Part shown: in pieces, positions 6,688 through 62,943 of the stretch | Layout: each line of letters begins with the position of its first letter | Numbering within the stretch: the stretch's first letter is position 1 | NCBI GenBank assembly: GCA_964426385.1 | Contig: CAYRQF010000001.1 | Coordinates: 102,190-166,189 of the forward strand | Direction of reading: 5' to 3' | DNA length: 64,000 nucleotides | From: an uncultured Candidatus Saccharibacteria bacterium | GTDB lineage: Bacteria > Patescibacteriota > Minisyncoccia > Phycocordibacterales > CSBR16-119 | Program-made: the position numbers and the translations under genes | The notes under the pieces: generated by a model | Seen by the model: only the letters and a program-made list of their open reading frames with translations | What the model was told of the DNA's origin: nothing | Database searches by the model: none

Positions 6688-7242
6688 ATGGATATATTGG
6701 CACACACATTATGGACGAACGCGGGGGCGAGGGGGGTGAATAAGCTTCGCGAGAAGAAGGGTAAACCTCGAATATTTCACGTCGGCTGGACAGCCTTCTG
6801 GGGCGTAGCGCCGGACTTCTTCGCCTTTACGGCGCCGTTCGTCATAGCTCTCTGGAACATCGTCTTTGGCGATGCCACATTTGGAAATATTCGCAGCAAT
6901 ATGGACGTGGGAGGGTTCGATCTCGCGGCGTACCTGTATCAGTACAGTCACTCCCTCGTTGTCTTCGCCGTAGTGTTCCTACTAGTCTGGCTCATCTCGC
7001 GCCGTCCACGCTGGGAGATGCTCGGCTGGGCACTCCATATACTCATCGATATCCCGTCTCACGACATCGGTTTCTACGCCACGCCGTTCCTATTCCCGAT
7101 ATCTGACTATCGTTTCCCATACGGCGTGTCCTGGGGTAACACTTACTACATGATCATCAACTACTCCGCACTAGTCCTAGTCTGGAGCGGTATCGCCATC
7201 GCGAAAATCCGCAAGACTATAAATGCCCGAAAGACCCTATAA
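6688..7242 (+). CDS. Membrane-bound metal-dependent hydrolase-like protein (YdjM/DUF457-like), GC-rich
   Basis: 184 aa with multiple TM segments and HTLW/HD motifs. Notably higher GC than its left neighbours. Its first 50 bp are duplicated at 4681 and partly at 5835. Confidence 0.45.
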   Translation: MDILAHTLWTNAGARGVNKLREKKGKPRIFHVGWTAFWGVAPDFFAFTAPFVIALWNIVFGDATFGNIRSNMDVGGFDLAAYLYQYSHSLVVFAVVFLLVWLISRRPRWEMLGWALHILIDIPSHDIGFYATPFLFPISDYRFPYGVSWGNTYYMIINYSALVLVWSGIAIAKIRKTINARKTL

Positions 7243-7286
7243 AATGGTTGTATTGACAACGTATATACAATGTATATACTAATGAT

Positions 7287-8115: not shown

Positions 8116-8187
8116 ACCCCCACACCTACTTTTTCATAGTTCTTTGAACACGCGCCTTTAGCGCAATGAAAAAGTAGGTGTAGGGGT
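8116..8187. repeat. Long-stem hairpin H1: arms ACCCCCACACCTACTTTTTCAT / ATGAAAAAGTAGGTGTAGGGGT (21 of 22 bp) around a 28-nt loop containing GCGC
   Basis: Stem read directly from the sequence. Intergenic between the GIY-YIG and lapA-like genes. Shares the CCCCCACACCTA arm with H2 at 55687..55755. Confidence 0.6.
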
Positions 8188-9447: not shown

Positions 9448-10002
9448 ATGGGTAATTTTCAAGGAGGAGGGGCTAGAGGAGGATTTCGGGGTGGGGACCG
9501 CGGCGGCAAGCCATCGTTTGGAGGTAAGCCACGTTTTGGCGGAGCTAGAGGCTCTGATCGTGGTGACCGAGGTGATGTCGTGATGCACAAGGCTGTTTGT
9601 AGTGAATGTGGCAAAAGCACTGAAGTGCCTTTCAAGCCGACAGGTGACAAGCCTGTTTACTGCAAGGATTGCTTCAATGCCAAGCGTGATGAATCTGACA
9701 CGCGTGGTGGGGCACGTCCTAGCTACGACCGTGCGCCAAGGCGAGACTATGGTGACAAGCCAAGTTTCCGTCCTGACTCACGAAGTGAGCGCCCAGCCTA
9801 CAAGCCAGCGCCTGCTAACGACGAGACGAAGAAGGTAATGCAGGAGATCAGCACGAAACTCGATAAACTAATCAACGCCGTCGAGAGGCTCGCAGACTCG
9901 AGCAAAGCCGCTAGCCACAAAGAAGATGTGAAGAATGTGGTAGCCAAAGCGATGAAAGAAGACAAACCAAAAGCCAAGGCCGTTAAGAAGAAGAAAGCGT
10001 AA
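9448..10002 (+). CDS. RGG/GG-repeat protein with a central C4 zinc ribbon (CSECGK...YCKDC) and a K-rich C-terminus
   Basis: 184 aa. N-terminal GGGARGGFRGGDRGG repeats, CxxC-x17-CxxC, C-terminal KAKAVKKKKA. Possible nucleic-acid-binding protein; the family is not assigned. Confidence 0.5.
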   Translation: MGNFQGGGARGGFRGGDRGGKPSFGGKPRFGGARGSDRGDRGDVVMHKAVCSECGKSTEVPFKPTGDKPVYCKDCFNAKRDESDTRGGARPSYDRAPRRDYGDKPSFRPDSRSERPAYKPAPANDETKKVMQEISTKLDKLINAVERLADSSKAASHKEDVKNVVAKAMKEDKPKAKAVKKKKA

Positions 10003-10428: not shown

Positions 10429-10695
10429 ATGACAGTTGAGAAACTCACAGATATTCCGAACGTAGGCAAGCGTGTGGCTGGAGACCTGGAACTCCTAGGG
10501 ATCAAAAAGCTCGCGGATCTCAGAAACAAAGACCCGTACAAGTTGTATCAGAAGCTTTGCAAACTAACAGGGGTACGACATGACCCATGCTTGCTCGATA
10601 CATTCATGGCGGTAGTTGATCATGCCAACGGTGCACCCAGAACCCCATGGTGGTTCTATACTGTGGAGAGGAAAAAGAAGTATCCGAATATATAA
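10429..10695 (+). CDS. Helix-hairpin-helix DNA-binding small protein (Cdd1/'pathogenicity locus' PF11731-like)
   Basis: 88 aa. LTDIPNVGKRVAGDLELLGIKKLADL is an HhH motif. Confidence 0.5.
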   Translation: MTVEKLTDIPNVGKRVAGDLELLGIKKLADLRNKDPYKLYQKLCKLTGVRHDPCLLDTFMAVVDHANGAPRTPWWFYTVERKKKYPNI

Positions 10696-14554: not shown

Positions 14555-15076
14555 ATGGAGACAAATAATACAAAAACATGGCAAGTGGTTCTGGGGATAG
14601 CGATAATAATATTTTTAGCGATCTGGTTGTTTAAAATGCCAGAGCGGGAAGTAGTTTTACCAACAGGAGATACAGGAGAAGAAGTTGTTGATAATGACGA
14701 AGAAGAGGCCATGAAAGAAATGTGCTACATCTGGAATACAGAAGCAGGCGATAGTGCGACACTTCGGCTAAGTATCAATGGTGACACGGCAAACGGAAGT
14801 CTCAACTGGATCCCGGCAGAGAAGGATCGTAAAACCGGAAATTTCGAAGGCAAGGTTGCAAGCGTTGGAACGGTTGACGCTCTCTGGAAAGTTTCAGCTG
14901 AGGGTATGACCTATGACGAACAGCTTATTCTGAAGTACAGCGAGACTTCTGCTAACGTAGGATTCGGCATGATGGAAGATAGGGGAGACGGAACATATGT
15001 CTATAGTGACCCGACGAATCTATCGTACGAGCCGAATCTCGCGAGAACGGATTGTGGAGATGAGGCCGTTAGATAA
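14555..15076 (+). CDS. Hypothetical membrane-anchored protein
   Basis: 173 aa with an N-terminal TM segment (WQVVLGIAIIIFLAIWLF). Confidence 0.45.
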   Translation: METNNTKTWQVVLGIAIIIFLAIWLFKMPEREVVLPTGDTGEEVVDNDEEEAMKEMCYIWNTEAGDSATLRLSINGDTANGSLNWIPAEKDRKTGNFEGKVASVGTVDALWKVSAEGMTYDEQLILKYSETSANVGFGMMEDRGDGTYVYSDPTNLSYEPNLARTDCGDEAVR

Positions 15077-19000: not shown

Positions 19001-19085
19001 TCAAGCTAAAAATGGGTTAGCGAGCGATGGTGTTATCGGCCCCACAACAGGTAACCTATTGTCTGGAGTAAAGTGTGACATATAG
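16023..19085 (+). CDS. Giant secreted NHL-repeat (beta-propeller) surface protein with a C-terminal peptidoglycan-binding (PG_binding_1-like) domain
   Basis: 1020 aa. N-terminal signal/TM segment. Many repeats of ...SRVQKFNSAGVYQSQFG... (NHL-like). LTCGTTYHYRAYATN and LICGTTYHYQATATG Fn3-like modules. C-terminus KNFQAKNGLASDGVIGPTTGNLL matches the PG-binding domain. The NHL repeats are visible at DNA level (cgagttcaaaaattcaactccgcggg recurs). Confidence 0.8.
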   Translation: MLMPPQSKNIRRYSVRTVVGILIAVVFLTSTQIIEAAAPTVVTGAATSITKTSAILAGSITSNGGELITDTGFEFGLTDSYGQIIPSTDNTTEYVSEFGTSGSGNGQFANPFDIDIDSAGNIYVVEQDGSRVQKFNPAGVYQMKFGSFGVGDGQFQQSRGIGVDSAGNIYVADTSRVQKFNSAGVYQSQLVGSFSDPTDIGIDSSDNVYVVNFGGHEIDIYNSAGVFQNTVGSLGTGDGQFSNPMYIAFDSIGNFFVTDFGNHRVQKFNSAGVYQSQFGSDGDDNNGDGDGEFSYIRGIAINSNDDIYVSDISQNRVQKFNSAGVYLSQFGTSGNDDGEFSGAYDVAIDSLDAIYVTDSQNNRVQKFIEQFSADLNAVLPTLTCGTTYHYRAYATNATATSYGDDETFTTLACEEYIVRTGLASSATTTTVSLAGTHEGEGSLNITGRGFNYGLTDSYGSSVSETGDLFIDKFGSAGGGGGNGTFQFLASVGTDVDGNIYTTDQFEDVIQKFDADGNFVSQYNVSFPAPGGLSLPFSVRGAPDGKLYAIDAYNSQIVRFDNSLFANPTVFAAGGGVSFPTGVGFDSDSNVYIADYGNDRIAKFNPAGTLLSTISAGSGGGNGQLSGPSAVAVDTDGNIYVLDTNNMRVQKFSSAGTYVAQVGSAGSGNGEFGISYQSSIAVDADNFVYVVDTSNNRVQKFNSNLVYQSQFGVSGAGDGEFSGPTGIAIGANGDIVIADVGNSRVQIFNEHFALGVTGLICGTTYHYQATATGPDGTETGDDATLTTSVCPVAASSGGGGSSGTHFICTDSSAVNYTKDIGDGRVNNDICKYKQVNVPTTELACETPLYLTRPVKFGASNNPDDVRLLEKYLNTYEDSNLTVDGFYSKADFDTVVRWQEKYSSEILTPWGITEGTGYVFITSLRKIKHIHESKCAEGGYVTASEACYLYDQVLKRGMNSGFVKFAQKALLASGNLAGTADGVFGSVTELAVKNFQAKNGLASDGVIGPTTGNLLSGVKCDI

Positions 19086-19169
19086 TTAGCATTCTCACCT
19101 CGATTAATCACCAGAATCTCTTTATCCACTACAAGATACTAACGAGGCGTAGTAAAATATAGGCTGTTA

Positions 19170-22100
19170 ATGCCTACAAAAGATAAAATTCAAACAAAGC
19201 ATATTCTAAGCATTCTTGGCGCGCTTTTAATTTGTATTGTTTTCCTTGAGTCAACCAATATCTTACAAGCTGCAGCACCTACAGTGAGGACCATGCCTGC
19301 AGTCAACATAACGAAAACCAGCGCAACTCTTGCTGGTGTTGTTAGTGATGATGGTGGTCAGCTTATTACAGCGAGTGGTTTTGAATTTGGCCTTACATCT
19401 AGCTATGGTCAGAGTGTGGGCGGAGATCCGACATATAGACAGACAGATGAATTCGGTGGCACAGGTAGCGCCAATGGGCAATTAGACGAACCGATGGGTA
19501 TAGATCTCGACTCGAATGGTGATATTTTTGTTGCGGATAGAATAAACAATAGAATTCAGAAGTTTAATGGTACGACTCACGCATGGATGCAAAATATTGG
19601 TACACCCGGTACCGATCCAGAACAGCTAGAAGATCCTCTGAGTATTGTTCTTCTGTCTGACGACAGCATGTGGGTCGTAGATAGGGCGAATGGATCACAA
19701 AATAGTGGTTCGCTTATCAAGTACGATGCATCAGGAACATTCGTGGAGTGCATCACACTCAATCAGTGTGCCACAAATTTTGACTTCGGTAACACACTCT
19801 TTGCCAGTAATTTTAATGGAGGAATAGAGACAGATTCATCGGATAATCTGTACTACACAAAGGGTAATGAAGTTTATGCAATTGCAAATGGGACAAATGC
19901 TACTATTTTTGTAAAAGGGGCGGCAGCTAGTTCGGCAGATGGAGAATTCGATAGCCCGGCAGGGTTGTTCGTAGACTCCGTAGGTAATATTTTAGTTGCG
20001 GATAAAAACAATGGTCGTATTCAGAAATTAGAGTCTGACGGTGATTATCTATCTAAGTTTGGGACTGTCGGGTCTGGTGACGGAGAGTTTCAAACTCCGG
20101 CGGCTATAACATCAGATAGTACCGGAGATTTGTTTGTAGTTGATGCTGGTAATGGCCGTATTCAGAAATTTGATTCAAATGGGAATTTCATACTTGATTT
20201 TGGGTCAGTTGGTCAAGGGGACGATCAGTTTGCGGGTCCTGTGGAAATTGTCGCAGATGCAGCAGATGACTTATATATTAGCGATAGTCAGAACGATCGT
20301 ATCGTGAAGTATGAGCAGGGTTTTACTTCGGACTTGTCAGTGGTCTTGCCATCTCTTACGTGTGGAACCACTTATCACTATCGAGCTTATGCCACAAACT
20401 CTGATGGAACATCTTATGGTTTAGACGAAACTTTCTCGACACTGGATTGCGATGTGCCTCTGGTTAGAACAGGTGTCTCGTCATCAATTACTGCTTCTTC
20501 AGTGACACTCGCAGGTACACATGAGGATGTAGGAAGCCTATCGATGACCTCTAGAGGTTTCCACTACGGTACAACTGCTTCATACGGCCAGTCTGTAAGT
20601 GAGGACGGTGATCTGTATATAGATAGTTTTGGTTCCGCGGGTGGAGGGGGAGGGAACGGTACATTTTTATCACTATACGGGGTAGGCTCTGACGCTGAAG
20701 GCAATATTTACACCACTGACAGTTTTGAAAATATCATCCAGAAATTTAGTGCTACGGGTACTTTTATATCTCAATATGACGTAAGCTTCCCTGATCCAGG
20801 CGGAGTCACAACCCCTTATGTGCTTCGTGGTGCACCAGATGGAAAGTTGTACGCTGTTGATGCTTTTAATAGCCAAATAATCAAATTCGACGATAATAAT
20901 TTTACTAACCCTACTGTTTTTGCTGCAGGCGCAGGATTATCATTTCCGACAGATATCGCTTTTGATGCCAGTAGTAATATTTACGCTGTAGATTCTGGAA
21001 ACAGCCGAGTAGTTAAACTAGACCAGACTGGTTCTATTGTTTTGGAAATAGATAATCCTAACGGAGGTCCAGATTTTGCAGCGTTACAAACTATTGCTGT
21101 TAATTCGGGCGGAGATATTTTTGTCTATGACGGTTCAACGCTACAAATACATAAGTTTGATTCGACTGGTGCATACGTTACTTCAACCTCAGGAGTTAAT
21201 GGTTCTGCGGACGGACAATTTGCAGGGAGTGCCTATCTGGCAAGTGACGGGAGTTACATATACGCAGCGGATGGTGCGAGCACCAGGGTTCAAAAATTTG
21301 ATTCAGATCTAGATTTCGTCTCAAAATTTGGATCTACCGGTGCTTCTATAGGTCAGTTCGCTTCTATTACCGGAATTACACTCGGCAACAGCGGCGATAT
21401 TATTGTCGCTGATTCAGGCAATTCAAGGATTCAGATTTTTAACGAAAGATTCTCTTTGCCTTTGGTGGGCCTTACTTGCGGAACGACCTATCACTATGAG
21501 GCATTTGCTACGAGTCCCGATGGTACAGGGGACGGTGACGATGCAACTTTTACAACTAGCGCTTGTCCTCCGTCAACGGGCGGTGGGGGTGGAACCACGG
21601 GGTCTAGATACTACTGTAATGACCCACTGGCTACTAACTATACTGAGAACGTACCGTCGAATCGTGTCGACAACGATCTATGTAAATACCCTGAACCAGA
21701 TGACGATGAGCTCGCATGTACTGGTACACTATTTTTGAGTAAGCCCGTAAGATACGGCTACGCTAACAACCCAGAAGACGTGAAGCTCTTGGAGAGATTT
21801 CTAAATACTTACGAGAATACGACCCTCACAGTCGATGGAGTGTATGCGCACAACGACTATGTTGCTGTTGTTACATGGCAAGAGAAATATGCAAGTGAGA
21901 TATTGAAACCTTGGGGCCTAACCAAAGGAACTGGCTACGTGTTTATCACCAGTCTCAGAAAGATTCAGAAGGTGCATGATACAGGATGCGCAGAAACAGA
22001 AAGACTGAAGAGAGATTTCTGCTACATCTATGATCAGAAACTGAAAAGAGGGGACAATATCCCACTAGTTAAGTTCGCCCAGAAGGCACTGCGTGCAGCG

Positions 22101-28107: not shown

Positions 28108-28212
28108 GATCGTTGAAGTTTGATTGTATTGTACCATAGTATAATGATATTGTCAATCAATAATTTTGATATTTAACAGGTTAGAAAATTATTTGCATGC
28201 TAAAATGTTCCC

Positions 28213-28971
28213 GTGGAAGACACTCTCTATAAAGTAAAAACTGTAAGTTTCGAAGGACCTCTTGAGGTCCTATTGGGTCTCATCGAGAAGCGAAAACTTT
28301 TCATAAACGAAATATCGCTGGCGGCTATTACAGACGATTACATAACCTATGTTCGAGGCCTGAAGACCAGCGATATTAGCGACTACACGTCGTTCATATC
28401 TGTTGCCGCAACACTCATTCTCATCAAGTCACGTTCTCTCATACCGAACCTCGAGCTCACGACAGAGGAAGAGTCCGATGTGGCATCACTTGAGCATCGT
28501 CTGGAACTATACAAGCTGATCAAAGAAATAGGTGTCGATATAGCCGAGCAATTCGGGAAGAATATTATTTTCCCAAGGCTCGAGCGCGACATCGAGATGC
28601 GAGTGTTCGCCCCACATGAGAGTATTTCTCAAACGTCTCTTCTCGGAGCTATCAATGACGTAGTCCGGGCGATACCTGAACCAGCTGTAGTCAAGCCAGA
28701 GGTTGTCGTCATGAAGATAAGGAGTCTCGAGGATACGATCAATGATCTCGTAGAACGTGTACACAAGTCTCTCAAGATGAGCTTCCGAGAGTTTTCTGCG
28801 AGCGGTGACTACAAAACTCACAAAGAAAAGAAGGTTGGTACGATAGTCTCGTTCCTCGCCATGCTAGAATTAGTCCGTCAGGGATTTATGGAGGCATTTC
28901 AGGGTGAGGATTTTTCTGACATAAATATCGAGAAGCTAGAAAATAAACAAGAACCAAATGGATCCCGTTAG
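28213..28971 (+). CDS. scpA: Segregation and condensation protein A
   Basis: 252 aa. FEGPLEVLLGLIEKRKLFINEISLAAITDDYITYV is the ScpA N-terminal signature. Confidence 0.8.
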   Translation: MEDTLYKVKTVSFEGPLEVLLGLIEKRKLFINEISLAAITDDYITYVRGLKTSDISDYTSFISVAATLILIKSRSLIPNLELTTEEESDVASLEHRLELYKLIKEIGVDIAEQFGKNIIFPRLERDIEMRVFAPHESISQTSLLGAINDVVRAIPEPAVVKPEVVVMKIRSLEDTINDLVERVHKSLKMSFREFSASGDYKTHKEKKVGTIVSFLAMLELVRQGFMEAFQGEDFSDINIEKLENKQEPNGSR

Positions 28972-29084
28972 AAGCCGCGGTCGCAGATCCCAAGAAAAAC
29001 CATGATAAAATCAAAAAGCATTTTTATAAATATTAGCCAAACAGTTTGCGGGACGACCGCGACCTGCTTCTAACGGGATGGATC
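28961..29084. repeat. Inverted-repeat element IRE-1 (about 124 bp): outer 14-bp stem ATCCCGTTAGAAGC/GCTTCTAACGGGAT, inner stem CGCGGTCG/CGACCGCG, AT-rich loop of about 60 nt containing TTTTTATAAATATTA
   Basis: The left arm contains the scpA TAG stop (28969-71). The right arm ends in the scpB ATG (29078-80). Homologous to IRE-2 at 29620..29738. Confidence 0.75.
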
Positions 29085-29629
29085 TATCGAATAAAATCGA
29101 AGCATTACTTTTCTGGAAAGGCGAGCCAATGACCCTATGGGATATCGGGGTGGCACTACGCGCAGAACCAGACGATGTAAAGTCTGCATTTCCGAAGCTA
29201 CGTGAAAGTCTCACGGGTAGAGGCATAACAGTAATAGAACATGACGGCAAAGTAATGCTCGGTACTGCGCCAGAGATGTCAGAATTCTTCGAGACCCTCA
29301 GAAAGGAAGAGCTCCAGAAAGAGCTGTCGAAAGCCGCCCTCGAGACACTATCCGTTATCCTCTACAAGCAGGGTGTCACCCGAAGCGATATCAACTTCAT
29401 CCGAGGAGTGAACTCGAGCTACATCCTCCGAAACCTCGAGGTCCGAGGCCTCGTCGAGCGTGTGAGTCACAATAGTGACGGTCGCACGTATGTGTATAAA
29501 CCATCCCTTGAACTCTTGGCGCATCTTGGGGTATCATCTGTAGCGGACTTACCAGACTTCGAGCGTGTCCGAAATAGCCTAGAAAACAAGATATCTAACC
29601 AGGAGAAAGACCCGAATGAATCCCGATAG
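29078..29629 (+). CDS. scpB: Segregation and condensation protein B
   Basis: 183 aa. ALETLSVILYKQGVTRSDINFIRGVNSSYILRNLEVRGLVER matches the ScpB winged-helix repeats. Confidence 0.8.
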   Translation: MDLSNKIEALLFWKGEPMTLWDIGVALRAEPDDVKSAFPKLRESLTGRGITVIEHDGKVMLGTAPEMSEFFETLRKEELQKELSKAALETLSVILYKQGVTRSDINFIRGVNSSYILRNLEVRGLVERVSHNSDGRTYVYKPSLELLAHLGVSSVADLPDFERVRNSLENKISNQEKDPNESR

Positions 29630-29738
29630 TGATCGCGGTCGCGCTAGTGTATATTACCGAGTATCGAGTATTACGAATTATTAGATTTTTATAATTATAT
29701 AGGTAACGTTTAGACCGCGACCTATCACTATCGGGATG
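29620..29738. repeat. Inverted-repeat element IRE-2 (about 119 bp): outer 14-bp stem ATCCCGATAGTGAT/ATCACTATCGGGAT, inner CGCGGTC/GACCGCG, AT-rich loop containing TTTTTATAATTATATA (perfect TATAAT)
   Basis: The left arm contains the scpB TAG stop (29627-29). The right arm ends in the ATG of the dacA-like gene (29736-38). Same architecture as IRE-1. Confidence 0.75.
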
Positions 29739-30677
29739 AAACCAACCCAGAGTGAGTTACAACTTATATTTTCGATGATATTCCTCGCAGTCGTGGGCTT
29801 TTTTTATGTGCGGGGTGTGAGGCAGGAGATAGCTAGAGGGGAAGTGCTCGAACAACAGATGGCTGAGTACGAGGAGAGTATCAAGCCCTTCCTAGATATC
29901 GCGCTCAACGCCGATGCTTTCGCAATATACGACATGGATAAATCTGAGTTCGTATACAAGAGAAATGCAGAGCAAGTTATGCCTCTCGCGTCACTCGCGA
30001 AAATAATGAGCGCTATAGTTGTGATGGAGAATGTTCCAGCTGATCATGTATTCACTATCTCCAAAGACGCACTTAGTATCATAGGTGACAACAAGCTACT
30101 TGTGGACGAGAGATGGACACGAGATGAGCTACTGCAATTCACGCTGGTAGAATCTTCGAATGACGCTATATACGAGATGGCTCTAGAAACGGGTGCGATT
30201 ATAGACCCGACTGCCGCAGACCCTCGGAGTGTTTTCATAGCAAAGATGAATGACAAAGCCAAAGAACTCAAACTTCAGAGTCTCAAGTTTAACAATGAGT
30301 CAGGTCTAGACGAGACAGCAGAACTCTCCGGAGCATACGGTAACAGTCGTGACGTTAGTCGTATTCTCTCGTACGCCGTAAAAACATATCCAGATATAAT
30401 GCTCCCAACAACGAAGTCTGCTCCAATATTCAACTCTCTCGACACACAGCATGTCGCTAAAAATACGAATCCTATCGTTGAGAGTATAGATGGTATCGTG
30501 GCATCAAAAACCGGCTTCACGAACATATCTGGGGGCAATCTAGCTGTGGCGATAGAGAGTGCGACGGGTAGAAAGCTCGTTATGACAGTGCTCGGCTCGA
30601 CGTTTGACGATAGGTTTACAGACATCATGACGCTGAGCGGGGCAGTGAATGGTGAAGTTAAGGAGACTCCGGAATAA
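29736..30677 (+). CDS. D-alanyl-D-alanine carboxypeptidase (serine-type, PBP5/S11-like low-molecular-weight PBP)
   Basis: 313 aa. N-terminal TM. SxxK (ASLAKIM), SxN (LVESSNDA) and KTG (SKTGFT) active-site motifs in the canonical order. Confidence 0.75.
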   Translation: MKPTQSELQLIFSMIFLAVVGFFYVRGVRQEIARGEVLEQQMAEYEESIKPFLDIALNADAFAIYDMDKSEFVYKRNAEQVMPLASLAKIMSAIVVMENVPADHVFTISKDALSIIGDNKLLVDERWTRDELLQFTLVESSNDAIYEMALETGAIIDPTAADPRSVFIAKMNDKAKELKLQSLKFNNESGLDETAELSGAYGNSRDVSRILSYAVKTYPDIMLPTTKSAPIFNSLDTQHVAKNTNPIVESIDGIVASKTGFTNISGGNLAVAIESATGRKLVMTVLGSTFDDRFTDIMTLSGAVNGEVKETPE

Positions 30678-33764: not shown

Positions 33765-34895
33765 ATGAAGGTACTATTAACAGGCGGAGGCACAGGTGGA
33801 CATTTCTATCCACTGATCGCTGTCGCCGAGGAACTCCGAGAACTAGCCGCCAAAGAGAAGATCCTAGATCTCGAGCTTTTCTATATATCCGATACTCCAT
33901 ACGATCAGAGTGCTCTCGATGAAGCTCAAATCAAATTCATGAAGCTCTCGACAGGCAAGCAGAGGATGTATTTCTCCATCGACAATTTCTTCGACATCTT
34001 CAAGACATTCTTCGCGACTATTCGCGCACTATTCATGGTCTACGGACTGTTCCCAGATGTCATATTCTCCAAAGGCGGATACCCATCGGTCCCTGTGACT
34101 ATCGCTGCTAGATTCCTCGATATCCCACTCATCATCCACGAGTCTGACTCTGTACCAGGTCGTGCGAACAAGATGGCAGGGAAGTGGGCGAAACGTATCG
34201 CCATATCGTACCAGGAAGCTGTCGAGTATTTCCCAAAAGACAAAACTGCCTATGTCGGACACATAGTTAGAGGAGATGTTCGCGAACCTCTCACCGAGGG
34301 TGCATTCGAATACCTGAAACTGAAGTCTGCGCTTCCGGTGATATTTGTGCTCGGCGGGTCTCAGGGTGCACGACTCATCAACGACGCCATACTAGACGCG
34401 CTACCGGACCTCGTCACACGCTATCAGATAATCCACCAGACGGGTGTAAAAAACTTTGATGAGGTCAAAGAGATCGGCAATATCGTACTAAAAGATAACG
34501 AGTCAAAAGGGAATTACTACCCGTATCCATATCTAAACAAGCTCGCCATCCGAATGTGCGCTGGAGTGGCGAACCTCATCATTTCTCGAGCCGGTGCGAA
34601 CTCGATCAGTGAGATCGCCGCCTGGGGTAGGGCATCTATCATCATCCCTATAACGAAATCTAACGGTGACCATCAACGAAACAATGCATTTAACTATGCT
34701 CGTACGGGTGCATGCTCCGTAGTAGAAGAGGCGAACCTGAAGGGTCATGTACTGACCGAAGAGATCGATCGCATACTCGGCGATGAGTCTCTCAGAAATA
34801 GGATGATGGAATCTACGAAGGACTTCGTCACACCCGACGCGGAGATGAAAATAGCAGAAGAGATTATCAGAATCGGTGTGTCACATGAAAAATAA
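33765..34895 (+). CDS. murG: UDP-N-acetylglucosamine--N-acetylmuramyl-(pentapeptide) pyrophosphoryl-undecaprenol N-acetylglucosamine transferase
   Basis: 376 aa. N-terminus MKVLLTGGGTGGHFYPLIAVAEEL is the MurG glycine-rich motif. VLGGSQGA motif present in the C-terminal half. Confidence 0.85.
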   Translation: MKVLLTGGGTGGHFYPLIAVAEELRELAAKEKILDLELFYISDTPYDQSALDEAQIKFMKLSTGKQRMYFSIDNFFDIFKTFFATIRALFMVYGLFPDVIFSKGGYPSVPVTIAARFLDIPLIIHESDSVPGRANKMAGKWAKRIAISYQEAVEYFPKDKTAYVGHIVRGDVREPLTEGAFEYLKLKSALPVIFVLGGSQGARLINDAILDALPDLVTRYQIIHQTGVKNFDEVKEIGNIVLKDNESKGNYYPYPYLNKLAIRMCAGVANLIISRAGANSISEIAAWGRASIIIPITKSNGDHQRNNAFNYARTGACSVVEEANLKGHVLTEEIDRILGDESLRNRMMESTKDFVTPDAEMKIAEEIIRIGVSHEK

Positions 34896-55686: not shown

Positions 55687-55755
55687 GCCCCCACACCTAT
55701 ATTTTGGTAGCGCAACGCGCGTCCTCTGGGACAATCAAAATATAGGTGTGGGGGC
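55687..55755. repeat. Long-stem hairpin H2: perfect 20-bp arms GCCCCCACACCTATATTTTG / CAAAATATAGGTGTGGGGGC around a 29-nt GC-rich loop
   Basis: Read directly from the sequence. On the minus-strand transcript it lies about 35 nt upstream of the rpmE start and downstream of the 463-aa gene. Shares the CCCCCACACCTA arm with H1. Confidence 0.65.
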
Positions 55756-62673: not shown

Positions 62674-62943
62674 ATGGAAAGAATAAATATGGAGCGTGGT
62701 CCGGACAATAAGCCAAATCCAGAAGTAAAGCGTCCATTAGAGACAGTAACACCGTATGATGATTTGAAAATTTATCAGAATAGTTTAGATTTACTCAAGA
62801 AAGAAGCCGAAGACTACAGAAGAGATCTCGCTATGTTCGAAGCAGAAGGAAATGATTCAATGGTAAGACGCTATCGGGATTTACTGAGAGACAAGGAGAT
62901 AGAGATTAAAGACCATGAAGCAATAGTTAATGCACACCAATAA
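62674..62943 (+). CDS. Small charged hypothetical protein
   Basis: 89 aa and E/K/R-rich. Overlaps the next ORF by 14 nt. Confidence 0.3.
   Translation: MERINMERGPDNKPNPEVKRPLETVTPYDDLKIYQNSLDLLKKEAEDYRRDLAMFEAEGNDSMVRRYRDLLRDKEIEIKDHEAIVNAHQ

Follow-up and report, generated by a model that had tools for sequence, protein, structure and literature searches.

We analyzed a stretch of 64,000 nucleotides (nt; "the window" below refers to this full stretch) from an uncultured Candidatus Saccharibacteria bacterium. The region at 28213-30677 carries three genes on the forward strand: scpA (28213-28971, from the list of open reading frames, ORFs; Pfam SMC_ScpA, E = 7e-16), scpB (29078-29629; Pfam ScpB), and a D-Ala-D-Ala carboxypeptidase gene (29736-30677; Pfam Peptidase_S11). 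Inspection of the sequence identified a 118-nt foldback element at each junction, namely the inverted-repeat elements IRE-1 (28962-29079) at scpA/scpB and IRE-2 (29620-29737) at scpB/carboxypeptidase, which are homologous to each other. The scpB gene starts at the 3′ foot of IRE-1 and stops at a TAG in the left arm of IRE-2, and the carboxypeptidase gene starts at the 3′ foot of IRE-2.

Both elements lie on the forward strand and share one architecture. A core running from TCCCG to CGGGA (28963-29078 in IRE-1, 29621-29736 in IRE-2) is closed by an outer stem, P1, of 14 nt that is 100% complementary and leaves exactly 90 nt between its arms. These arms are ATCCCGTTAGAAGC (28962-28975) and GCTTCTAACGGGAT (29066-29079) in IRE-1, and ATCCCGATAGTGAT (29620-29633) and ATCACTATCGGGAT (29724-29737) in IRE-2; the two outer stems differ at five positions, each time on both sides. 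An inner stem, P2, formed by CGCGGTCG and CGACCGCG in both copies (28976-28983 with 29054-29061, and 29634-29640 with 29713-29719), is followed on the 3′ side by a conserved unpaired ACCT (29062-29065 and 29720-29723). The AT-rich loop of IRE-1 spans 28984-29053. A preliminary description of this locus had reported two homologous palindromic elements at these junctions, each with a perfect 14-bp outer stem and an inner stem, and had placed the TAG of the upstream gene within the left arm and the ATG of the downstream gene at the element's right end, all of which we confirm for both copies. Its conserved TTTTTATAA(A/T)TAT box, on the other hand, is merely AT-rich loop sequence, with no alignment between IRE-1 and IRE-2.

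The composite pattern CCCGNTAG-N70-100-CTANCGGG matched twice in the window and in none of 100 shuffles. Both stems were strongly favored in RNA folding (-45.5 kcal/mol for IRE-1 and -43.7 kcal/mol for IRE-2; z = -4.9 and -4.3), and none of 200 shuffles equaled them. L001 and L002, which are independent assemblies, both contain the identical IRE-1 and IRE-2 sequence, and the copies are thus not an assembly artefact. No third copy was found in the 64-kb window; an additional ATCCCGATAG at 62871 lies in coding sequence, has no partner arm, and was rejected as a copy.

The homology of the two copies reaches 4 nt beyond the stems, as direct repeats of TGGA around IRE-1 (28959-28962 and 29079-29082) and TGAA around IRE-2 (29617-29620 and 29737-29740). 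The left TGGA, with A28958, is an orphaned copy of the scpB start codon, and on the right the element-terminal A29078 joins the TG of the repeat to form the functional scpB ATG (29078-29080). The carboxypeptidase ATG (29736-29738) is likewise formed from A29736 and the TG that follows, and both start codons use the last two bases of the element. The stop codons of scpA (TAG, 28969-28971) and scpB (TAG, 29627-29629) occupy element positions 8-10 of the left arms, and the final codons of scpA (GGA TCC CGT TAG) come from the target duplication and the left arm of IRE-1.

Homologues of ScpB place the organism among the Patescibacteria, near the Paceibacteria/Nomurabacteria. A comparison with related genomes, as the preliminary description had proposed, found scpA and scpB overlapping directly at the same sites. 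In L003, whose ScpB is 77% identical, neither place has an element: scpA, its ORF continuing to ...NGSTQ*, overlaps scpB (CCAATGGATCTACACAATAA), which in turn overlaps the carboxypeptidase gene (CCCAATGAAACTAACCAAGAGTGA). The empty scpA/scpB site reads CCAATGGATCTAC in L003 and ACAGATGGATCTATAC in L129, and the empty scpB/carboxypeptidase site in L003 reads CCCAATGAAACTAACC. Both junctions also overlap directly and lack an element in L130 and L131/L132 (73% and 69% relatives). The closest relative, L129 (ScpB 84% identical), has an empty scpA/scpB junction and an orthologue of IRE-2 with the same rare ATCCCGATAGTGAT arms and an interior that has diverged almost completely from that of the window copy. 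No copy of IRE-1 was found outside the window and the two near-identical assemblies. Because IRE-2 is shared with L129 and IRE-1 is absent there, IRE-2 is the older and IRE-1 the younger insertion in this lineage. Deleting IRE-2 and one repeat predicts a ScpB C-terminus of DPNETNPE*, and the ScpB of L003 ends in DPNETNQE; other ScpB homologues end in ...NESR, like the ScpB of the window.

The reciprocal case occurs at murG, where the start codon in L003 carries a member of the IRE-1 subfamily, 119 nt long, and the window site (ctagATGAAGG, with ATGAAGG at 33765-33771 on the forward strand) is empty in the comparison. In L005, a 66% relative, both start codons occupied in the window bear independent insertions, which belong to other subfamilies (of 103 nt and 121 nt), and the scpA stop precedes the element. 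Filled and empty states, a polymorphism characteristic of miniature inverted-repeat transposable elements (MITEs), were thus observed at three sites among the window, L129, L003, L130, L131, and L005. L005 has six copies in 20.5 kb (2469-2586, 7197-7278, 9900-10002, 10546-10666, 14647-14765, and 19062-19183), each adjoining the ATG of a gene. The 64-kb window has two, and L131/L132 a single, decayed copy of 80 nt. This uneven copy density suggests lineage-specific bursts.

The family extends far beyond these relatives. A pattern scan (ATCCCGWTAG-N75-105-CTAWCGGGAT) over 185,579 species genomes, a genome-wide search of the kind suggested in the preliminary description, returned at least 120 loci, almost all from the Candidate Phyla Radiation (CPR). 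All family counts given here (n = 136, 130, 115, 113, and so on) are counts among the matches listed, and for the flank statistics the core was later redefined as TCCCG..CGGGA with no constraint on the outer bases. By the labels of the depositors, nearly all matches belong to Patescibacteria of many classes (Saccharibacteria, Paceibacteria, Nomura-, Kaiser-, Wolfe-, Kerfeld-, Levyi-, and Moranbacteria, and others); L061, L088, and L118 are probable chance matches. Copies are 99-125 nt long and contain no conserved ORF, and their P1 arms are 96-100% paired (115 copies). Tandem copies with only the repeat between them occur in L015, L017, L068, and L116, and one nested copy was found in L047.

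A subfamily of 102-108 nt with arms ATCCCGTTAGACCTC and GAGGTCTAACGGGAT is found in contigs labelled Sedimentisphaerales/Planctomycetes and Omnitrophota (L069 5534-5640, on a 210-kb contig; L086 6291-6392; L087 439-546; L098 3026-3129; L092 5455-5562), and the family thus crosses phylum boundaries. Four of these five copies adjoin long ORFs at ATGA starts; the ATG in L087 opens only six codons. Viral contigs gave three pattern matches with one convincing copy, at an ATGA start, and phages are thus unsupported as the main vector. On a viral-class contig from IMG/VR, the copy at an ATGA start (L128 3734-3829) encloses a mini-hairpin in which the motif CCCTGTTAGAGGtttaCCTCTAACAGGG recurs, and its right arm is immediately preceded by AAGGAGG.

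The flanks of these copies define the target site. Exact 4-nt direct repeats flank 97 of the 130 copies (TGAA in 73, TGGA in 18), the core is preceded by A in 125 and followed by T in 127, and identical dinucleotides stand on both sides in 106 of 136 copies. Together, the flanking repeats and the A and T around the core give the target as A|TGRA. Assigning the outer A and T to the element would shorten the duplication from 4 nt to 2 nt; we replaced this 2-nt reading by the equivalent and more parsimonious 4-nt TGRA. A target duplication, as in MITEs, is therefore present, with a length that is not strictly fixed (a minority have 3 or 5 nt), and even the rare flanks GT..GT, GC..GC, and TGCG..TGCG are duplicated exactly.

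In 115 of the 136 copies, an ORF of 50 codons or more begins at the terminal AT and the G that follows it. Through the final ...CGGGA of the element, ATGRA is always restored at the right junction, and the downstream gene loses neither its start codon nor its N-terminus. The left junction retains the original ATG with its native signals, and incoming frames are closed by stops in the conserved arms (TAG in the left arm; TAA and (A)TGA in the right arm). Insertion also regenerates the target, which accounts for tandem copies separated by the repeat. With the overlapping or leaderless genes of compact genomes, nearly all other insertions would be destructive, and this accounts for the location of more than 85% of copies on ORF starts.

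The context of these starts is of more than one kind. Co-directional gene junctions account for 67 of 113 copies, with an upstream stop that mostly overlaps as ATGA (-3) or TAATGA (-6); the left-arm TAG (+7) is the upstream stop in about 11 of the 113, as it is in the window. A leaderless-type TAnnnT box, often TGGTAnAAT or GGGTATAAT, stands 4-10 nt upstream of the left ATG in about 45 of 113 copies; only 13 copies have a Shine-Dalgarno motif. The downstream genes are unrelated housekeeping genes of all kinds that form no shared regulon. The preliminary description had proposed a family of mobile palindromes that insert between coupled genes and spare expression. The mobility and the sparing of both frames hold up, given the empty sites, the reciprocal presence and absence, the target duplications, and more than 130 further copies. 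Insertion between coupled genes is too narrow, since 67 of 113 copies are at co-directional junctions, about 45 lie behind leaderless-type promoters, and the TAG-stop arrangement is found in only about 11. Taken together, the two contexts make coupled junctions a special case of start codons.

The stems have been maintained by paired changes. Positions 1-11 of P1 are constant, with A at position 11 in 95% of copies (positions 1-10 are fixed by the search pattern), and positions 12-14 vary and are 96-98% paired through A-T/G-C swaps. In 32 distinct copies of the window type (type A), nine pairs have changed on both sides, and none of 500 shuffles reached the observed covariation. The inner helix of type A varies among GGTC/GACC, GATC/GATC, and GGAC/GTCC, and an alternative, mutually exclusive register of it (GGTCGC/GCGACC with a single U) covaries too, the 3′ strand reading GAYC-GC-GAYC-T. 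Type-B copies carry a local hairpin, AC-GG(N4-7)-loop-(N4-7)CC-T, directly 5′ of the right arm, for which more than 20 different stems were seen. Some variants have a short palindrome in each half (CGCGATCGCG and GATCGCGATC); most copies have none.

The elements are also oriented. The (A/T)CCT side points toward the gene in 47 copies versus 5 in the reverse orientation, and these five reverse copies have perfect repeats. Interior motifs are strand-specific (GGGA[TA] 33 versus 4, ACGG 58 versus 9, AGTCG 19 versus 3), and the GGGAT motif repeats the right terminus, which makes an alternative pairing with the 5′ arm possible. Stem mismatches are more often G·T than A·C (49:21, p = 0.001, with a detection rule that is symmetric for both), and this excess indicates that the structure is selected on the gene-sense strand, either as mRNA or as that DNA strand. 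The loop does not appear to provide an internal promoter, as had been considered in the preliminary description: a sigma-70 scan gave no hit toward scpB or the carboxypeptidase gene in either loop, and -10-like hexamers in the interiors of the family are symmetric between strands (134 versus 129).

Reading frames within the element show a further regularity. In 30 of 102 copies, the reading frame that starts at the duplicated ATG stays open up to the TAA of the right arm, which precedes the real ATG by 7 nt, or up to the ATGA, compared with 9.3% of interior-shuffled controls (p = 8e-9). This frame is free of stops in the interior in 34 of 115 copies, and each of the remaining five in 11-17 of 115. 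Every one of the 102 copies whose left ATG is duplicated closes this frame within the element or at its right arm. Among the 26 copies whose length would allow an in-frame fusion of the two ATGs, a class that includes the 118-nt window copies, not one is open.

Translational coupling through the hairpin is plausible and compatible with the geometry of stop, stem, and start. The excess of frames that lead from the duplicated ATG to stops in the right arm lends it indirect support, although this feature is missing from the two window copies. In the mRNA, a hairpin of roughly 22 bp would hide the rebuilt AUG, which lacks a Shine-Dalgarno sequence. On reaching the UAG in the 5′ arm, a ribosome that completes scpA or scpB would melt the stem and expose the AUG, whose distance from the stop across the helix would be about 7 nt in the folded state. 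Termination-reinitiation would then drive translation of scpB and the carboxypeptidase gene, in place of the coupling by overlap in the relatives. The ribosomes entering the stems in the window would come from scpA and scpB themselves; in leaderless contexts, the incoming ribosome would be supplied by the duplicated AUG.

We conclude that IRE-1 and IRE-2 are very probably copies of a non-autonomous, MITE- or REPIN-like foldback element (REPINs being doublets of repetitive extragenic palindromes, REPs) that integrates at A|TGRA start codons and would allow reinitiation through its hairpin. The mobilizing enzyme would act in trans, and a DDE transposase would be the default candidate. An all-against-all clustering of 1039 ORFs from the loci gave housekeeping families and one Y1_Tnp cluster, with no recurrent transposase. 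The flanks searched held no pairs of termini 0.5-3 kb apart, and the parent insertion sequence (IS) expected of a MITE is therefore missing there.

Several points weigh against this explanation. No autonomous element or transposase with the same termini was found in about 1 Mb of sequence flanking the loci. The termini were set by the search pattern, which makes their apparent invariance partly a matter of construction. The same 11-nt termini throughout whole phyla are unusual for a MITE and could point to a role in an RNA or for a host factor. The duplicated-ATG frame runs into early stops in both window copies, and the coupling step is deduced from sequence. Repeats of 3, 4, and 5 nt all occur, and the fourth base of the repeat tracks the subfamily, with GG/GT in 7 of 9 CGGAAA-type copies versus about 13 of 83 others. 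This variable length, the scar-free empty sites, and the link between subfamily and fourth base would fit core-matching, site-specific, or guide-based recombination at least as well as classical DDE cut-and-paste.

These observations can be carried further, to an element of a new mechanistic type that homes to start codons by core-matching or guide-dependent recombination at A|TGRA and whose hairpin would serve as a portable translational coupler or switch, wiring gene expression across the phylum. Ribosomes supplied by the upstream frame or by the duplicated AUG would then be required for initiation of the downstream gene. Such a mechanism is suggested by the site CTAACGGGA-TGRA-TCCCGTTAG, which is palindromic and resembles a circle junction, as do the scar-free empty sites and the subfamily-specific fourth bases, but we hold it to be improbable.

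A second alternative is that the element is a functional cis-acting RNA, such as a leader or operator for a conserved protein or RNase, or a conformational switch, and that mobility is only its means of spread. The conserved termini and oriented motifs would then be RNA recognition elements rather than transposase sites. The conservation of ATCCCGTTAGA and TCTAACGGGAT throughout the phylum and even across phyla would be expected of such an RNA, as would the compensatory changes in two helices, the covarying alternative register of the inner helix, and the oriented interior motifs with the potential of GGGAT to pair with the 5′ arm. The sense-strand excess of wobble pairs and the strong orientation toward the gene agree with it as well, although the same strand asymmetry would result from ribosome-linked selection after insertion or from transposition as single-stranded DNA. 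What makes this explanation doubtful is that the downstream housekeeping genes have no regulon in common, that close relatives lack the element at the same genes, and that the interiors of orthologous copies (IRE-2 and its counterpart in L129) diverge almost completely. Nor did Rfam 15 contain a match to the window copies even at E <= 10, or to eight loci with typical copies at E <= 1; the whole window gave only tRNAs and noise.

A third alternative is movement as single-stranded DNA by an HUH Y1 enzyme (IS200/IS605-like, or like the REP-associated tyrosine transposases, RAYTs) in a system of the REPIN-RAYT type. Insertion would take place in one orientation 3′ of ATGR/TGRA, and the apparent duplication would consist of the target and an identical cleavage site encoded at the 3′ end of the element. 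A hairpin spanning the whole element, in which structure and not sequence is conserved past position 11, would suit such an enzyme, as would the 47:5 orientation bias, the strand-asymmetric wobble pairs, the short specific target, and a fourth flanking base that follows the subfamily. Exact duplication of the rare flanks, however, is what a true target duplication predicts, and the five reverse copies have perfect repeats. Y1_Tnp genes do occur in 4 of about 122 element loci, a weak enrichment, at 140-950 nt from a copy and on one side only (L019 232-985; L040 3507-4242; L094 1749-2486, reverse strand; L011 7211-8000). Those of L019 and L040, the two that were scanned, match PF01797 with E values of 1e-9 to 1e-11, and those of L011 and L094 cluster with them. 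We rejected these genes as the partner because they are flanked by their own unrelated palindromes of 17-29 nt and not by the ATCCCGTTAGA element, and on balance we consider a Y1 mechanism unlikely.

In the Y1_Tnp genes, perfect 17-29-nt palindromes lie within the coding sequence at the same position of the protein, as well as flanking the genes, and the internal ones are translated in frame (CCAACTTGGAAGCtctGCTTCCAAGTTGG as QLGSSASKL; also ACAAGGTTCAACCTTGT). This looks like a REP/RAYT-type system in CPR bacteria whose repeat has invaded its own transposase gene.

Intron-like removal of the element and one repeat from the mRNA, which would make its position in the DNA neutral, is very unlikely. 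Excision of the 116-nt core and one TGRA (120 nt) would restore the junction of the relatives exactly, and the stem brings both boundaries together. A spliced element would, however, tolerate ATGRA sites inside genes, and 115 of 136 copies are at ORF starts. No Rfam group I or II intron or ribozyme matched, the length of 100-125 nt is below that of known self-splicing RNAs, and the excess of upstream ORFs that end at the arm stops implies that the element is translated into. Ordinary intergenic hairpins conserved in place, whether terminators, attenuators, or chance inverted repeats, would account for strong hairpins between genes but are refuted by the comparative data (sites empty in relatives, more than 130 homologous copies elsewhere), by the 0 of 100 shuffles with the composite pattern, and, for an intrinsic terminator, by the GGATCTATCG and GAAACCAACC that follow the stems with no U-tract and no call from a terminator scan.

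Among known systems, the mobile foldback element favored here resembles the Correia elements of Neisseria (CREE/NEMIS), which are likewise small, non-coding foldbacks with terminal inverted repeats (TIRs), a short duplication, and many copies beside genes. Correia elements are about 100-155 bp long and co-transcribed; the TIR hairpin in the mRNA affects the neighboring gene, and processing by RNase III has been reported. Their target duplication is TA, their 26-bp TIRs are unrelated in sequence to ours, and they are known from a single genus and have no known relation to start codons, whereas the present family duplicates TGRA, rebuilds the ATG, has stop codons in its arms, and spans a phylum. 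Its TGRA flanks and ATCCCGTTAGA termini appear to place it outside the Correia family. As a foldback repeat co-transcribed with genes, it is also like the enterobacterial repetitive intergenic consensus (ERIC).

With REPINs the family shares a hairpin of about 100 nt made of inverted halves, a conserved foot (GTAG in REPs, GTTAG here), a variable loop, covarying structure, high copy numbers, and vertical inheritance with bursts, and IS200-like Y1 genes are present in some of the same genomes. REPINs are extragenic and make no target duplications, and their RAYT gene is flanked by the same REPs. Our elements differ in sitting on start codons (115 of 136) with direct repeats, and no RAYT gene flanked by the same repeat was found; of the inverted doublet they have the long hairpin with its conserved foot, and the palindrome in each half in some variants only. 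Like the Rickettsia palindromic elements (RPEs), they are mobile palindromes of reduced genomes, which persist because the genes they interrupt can still be expressed. An RPE, once inserted in frame, becomes a translated portion of its host protein. Such a fusion was rejected here on the basis of the 0 of 26 length-compatible copies that are open, since the element separates the reading frames.

Generic DDE-derived MITEs are similar in their small size, TIRs, duplication, AT-rich non-coding interior, tandem and nested copies, and filled/empty polymorphism. Target sites are TA for IS630 and YTAR for IS5. The family departs from IS630-, IS5-, and IS30-derived MITEs in its TGRA target, the covariation of its internal hairpins, its strong orientation bias, and the lack of a parent IS in the flanks; three of the four general features of MITEs are present and the parent IS is missing. 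We also compared the integron attC site, whose consensus (RYYYAAC...GTTRRRY) has AAC and GTT on the inner side of the stem and lies next to the 3′ end of the cassette ORF. With GTTAGA in the 5′ arm and TCTAAC in the 3′ arm, the elements have GTT and AAC on the outer side and adjoin the 5′ ends of ORFs, and this candidate was rejected.

For the proposed coupling there are functional analogies only, in termination-reinitiation at overlapping genes and in ribosome shunting or bypassing (the cauliflower mosaic virus 35S leader, T4 gene 60). In these, too, the 5′ foot of a stable stem is where one frame closes, and its 3′ foot is where the ribosome takes up translation again. Evidence for shunting or bypassing was not found here; the downstream frame has its own AUG, and the mechanism is predicted from sequence alone. 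A search for a published description of the family by keyword and by terminal sequence, which was not exhaustive, returned unrelated primers only. What is new about the family is that it targets start codons, carries an ATG and stop codons of its own, and extends over a whole phylum and beyond.

Patescibacteria have tiny, tightly packed genomes and are thought to be poor in mobile elements. A foldback element present at up to one copy per 3-4 kb in some of these genomes, where it survives by inserting at start codons and restoring them, would show selfish DNA using a "safe-harbour" strategy of a new kind. Should the hairpin enforce termination-reinitiation, coupling and leaderless initiation could be followed through the family as a natural experiment with many repeats, in bacteria for which genetic study is nearly impossible. 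A mobilizing enzyme with a 4-5-nt target and scar-free empty sites could also be of interest as a recombinase. On the practical side, insertions alter the C-termini of proteins, create spurious intergenic regions, and mislead gene callers.

An example of the latter is scpB itself. ScpB homologues begin with MDLxNKIEALLFWKGEP, which identifies the ATG at 29078 as the true start. The public call (P0001, 166 aa) begins at an internal Met 17 codons downstream (window 29078-29131), and the JGI call has 183 aa, which together with the homologues shows the true start to be at the foot of the hairpin. The element hairpin and the absent ribosome-binding site thus misled the gene caller, leaving scpB 17 codons short. 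Upstream of scpA, an extended -10-like box, TGcTAAAAT (window 28198-28215), lies 6 nt before the GTG listed as the start of the gene, and scpA may itself be leaderless or have another start. In other loci, the target genes of the element commonly show similar boxes, (T/G)GGTAnAAT, at a distance of 6-8 nt upstream of the ATG.

The window also contains a second, unrelated family of hairpin repeats, with copies at 8116-8187 and 55687-55755. Their arms, ACCCCCACACCTA(N6-9) and (N6-9)TAGGTGTGGGGG, are 20-22 bp long and 95-100% complementary, and enclose loops of 28-29 nt with GCGC-rich sequence.

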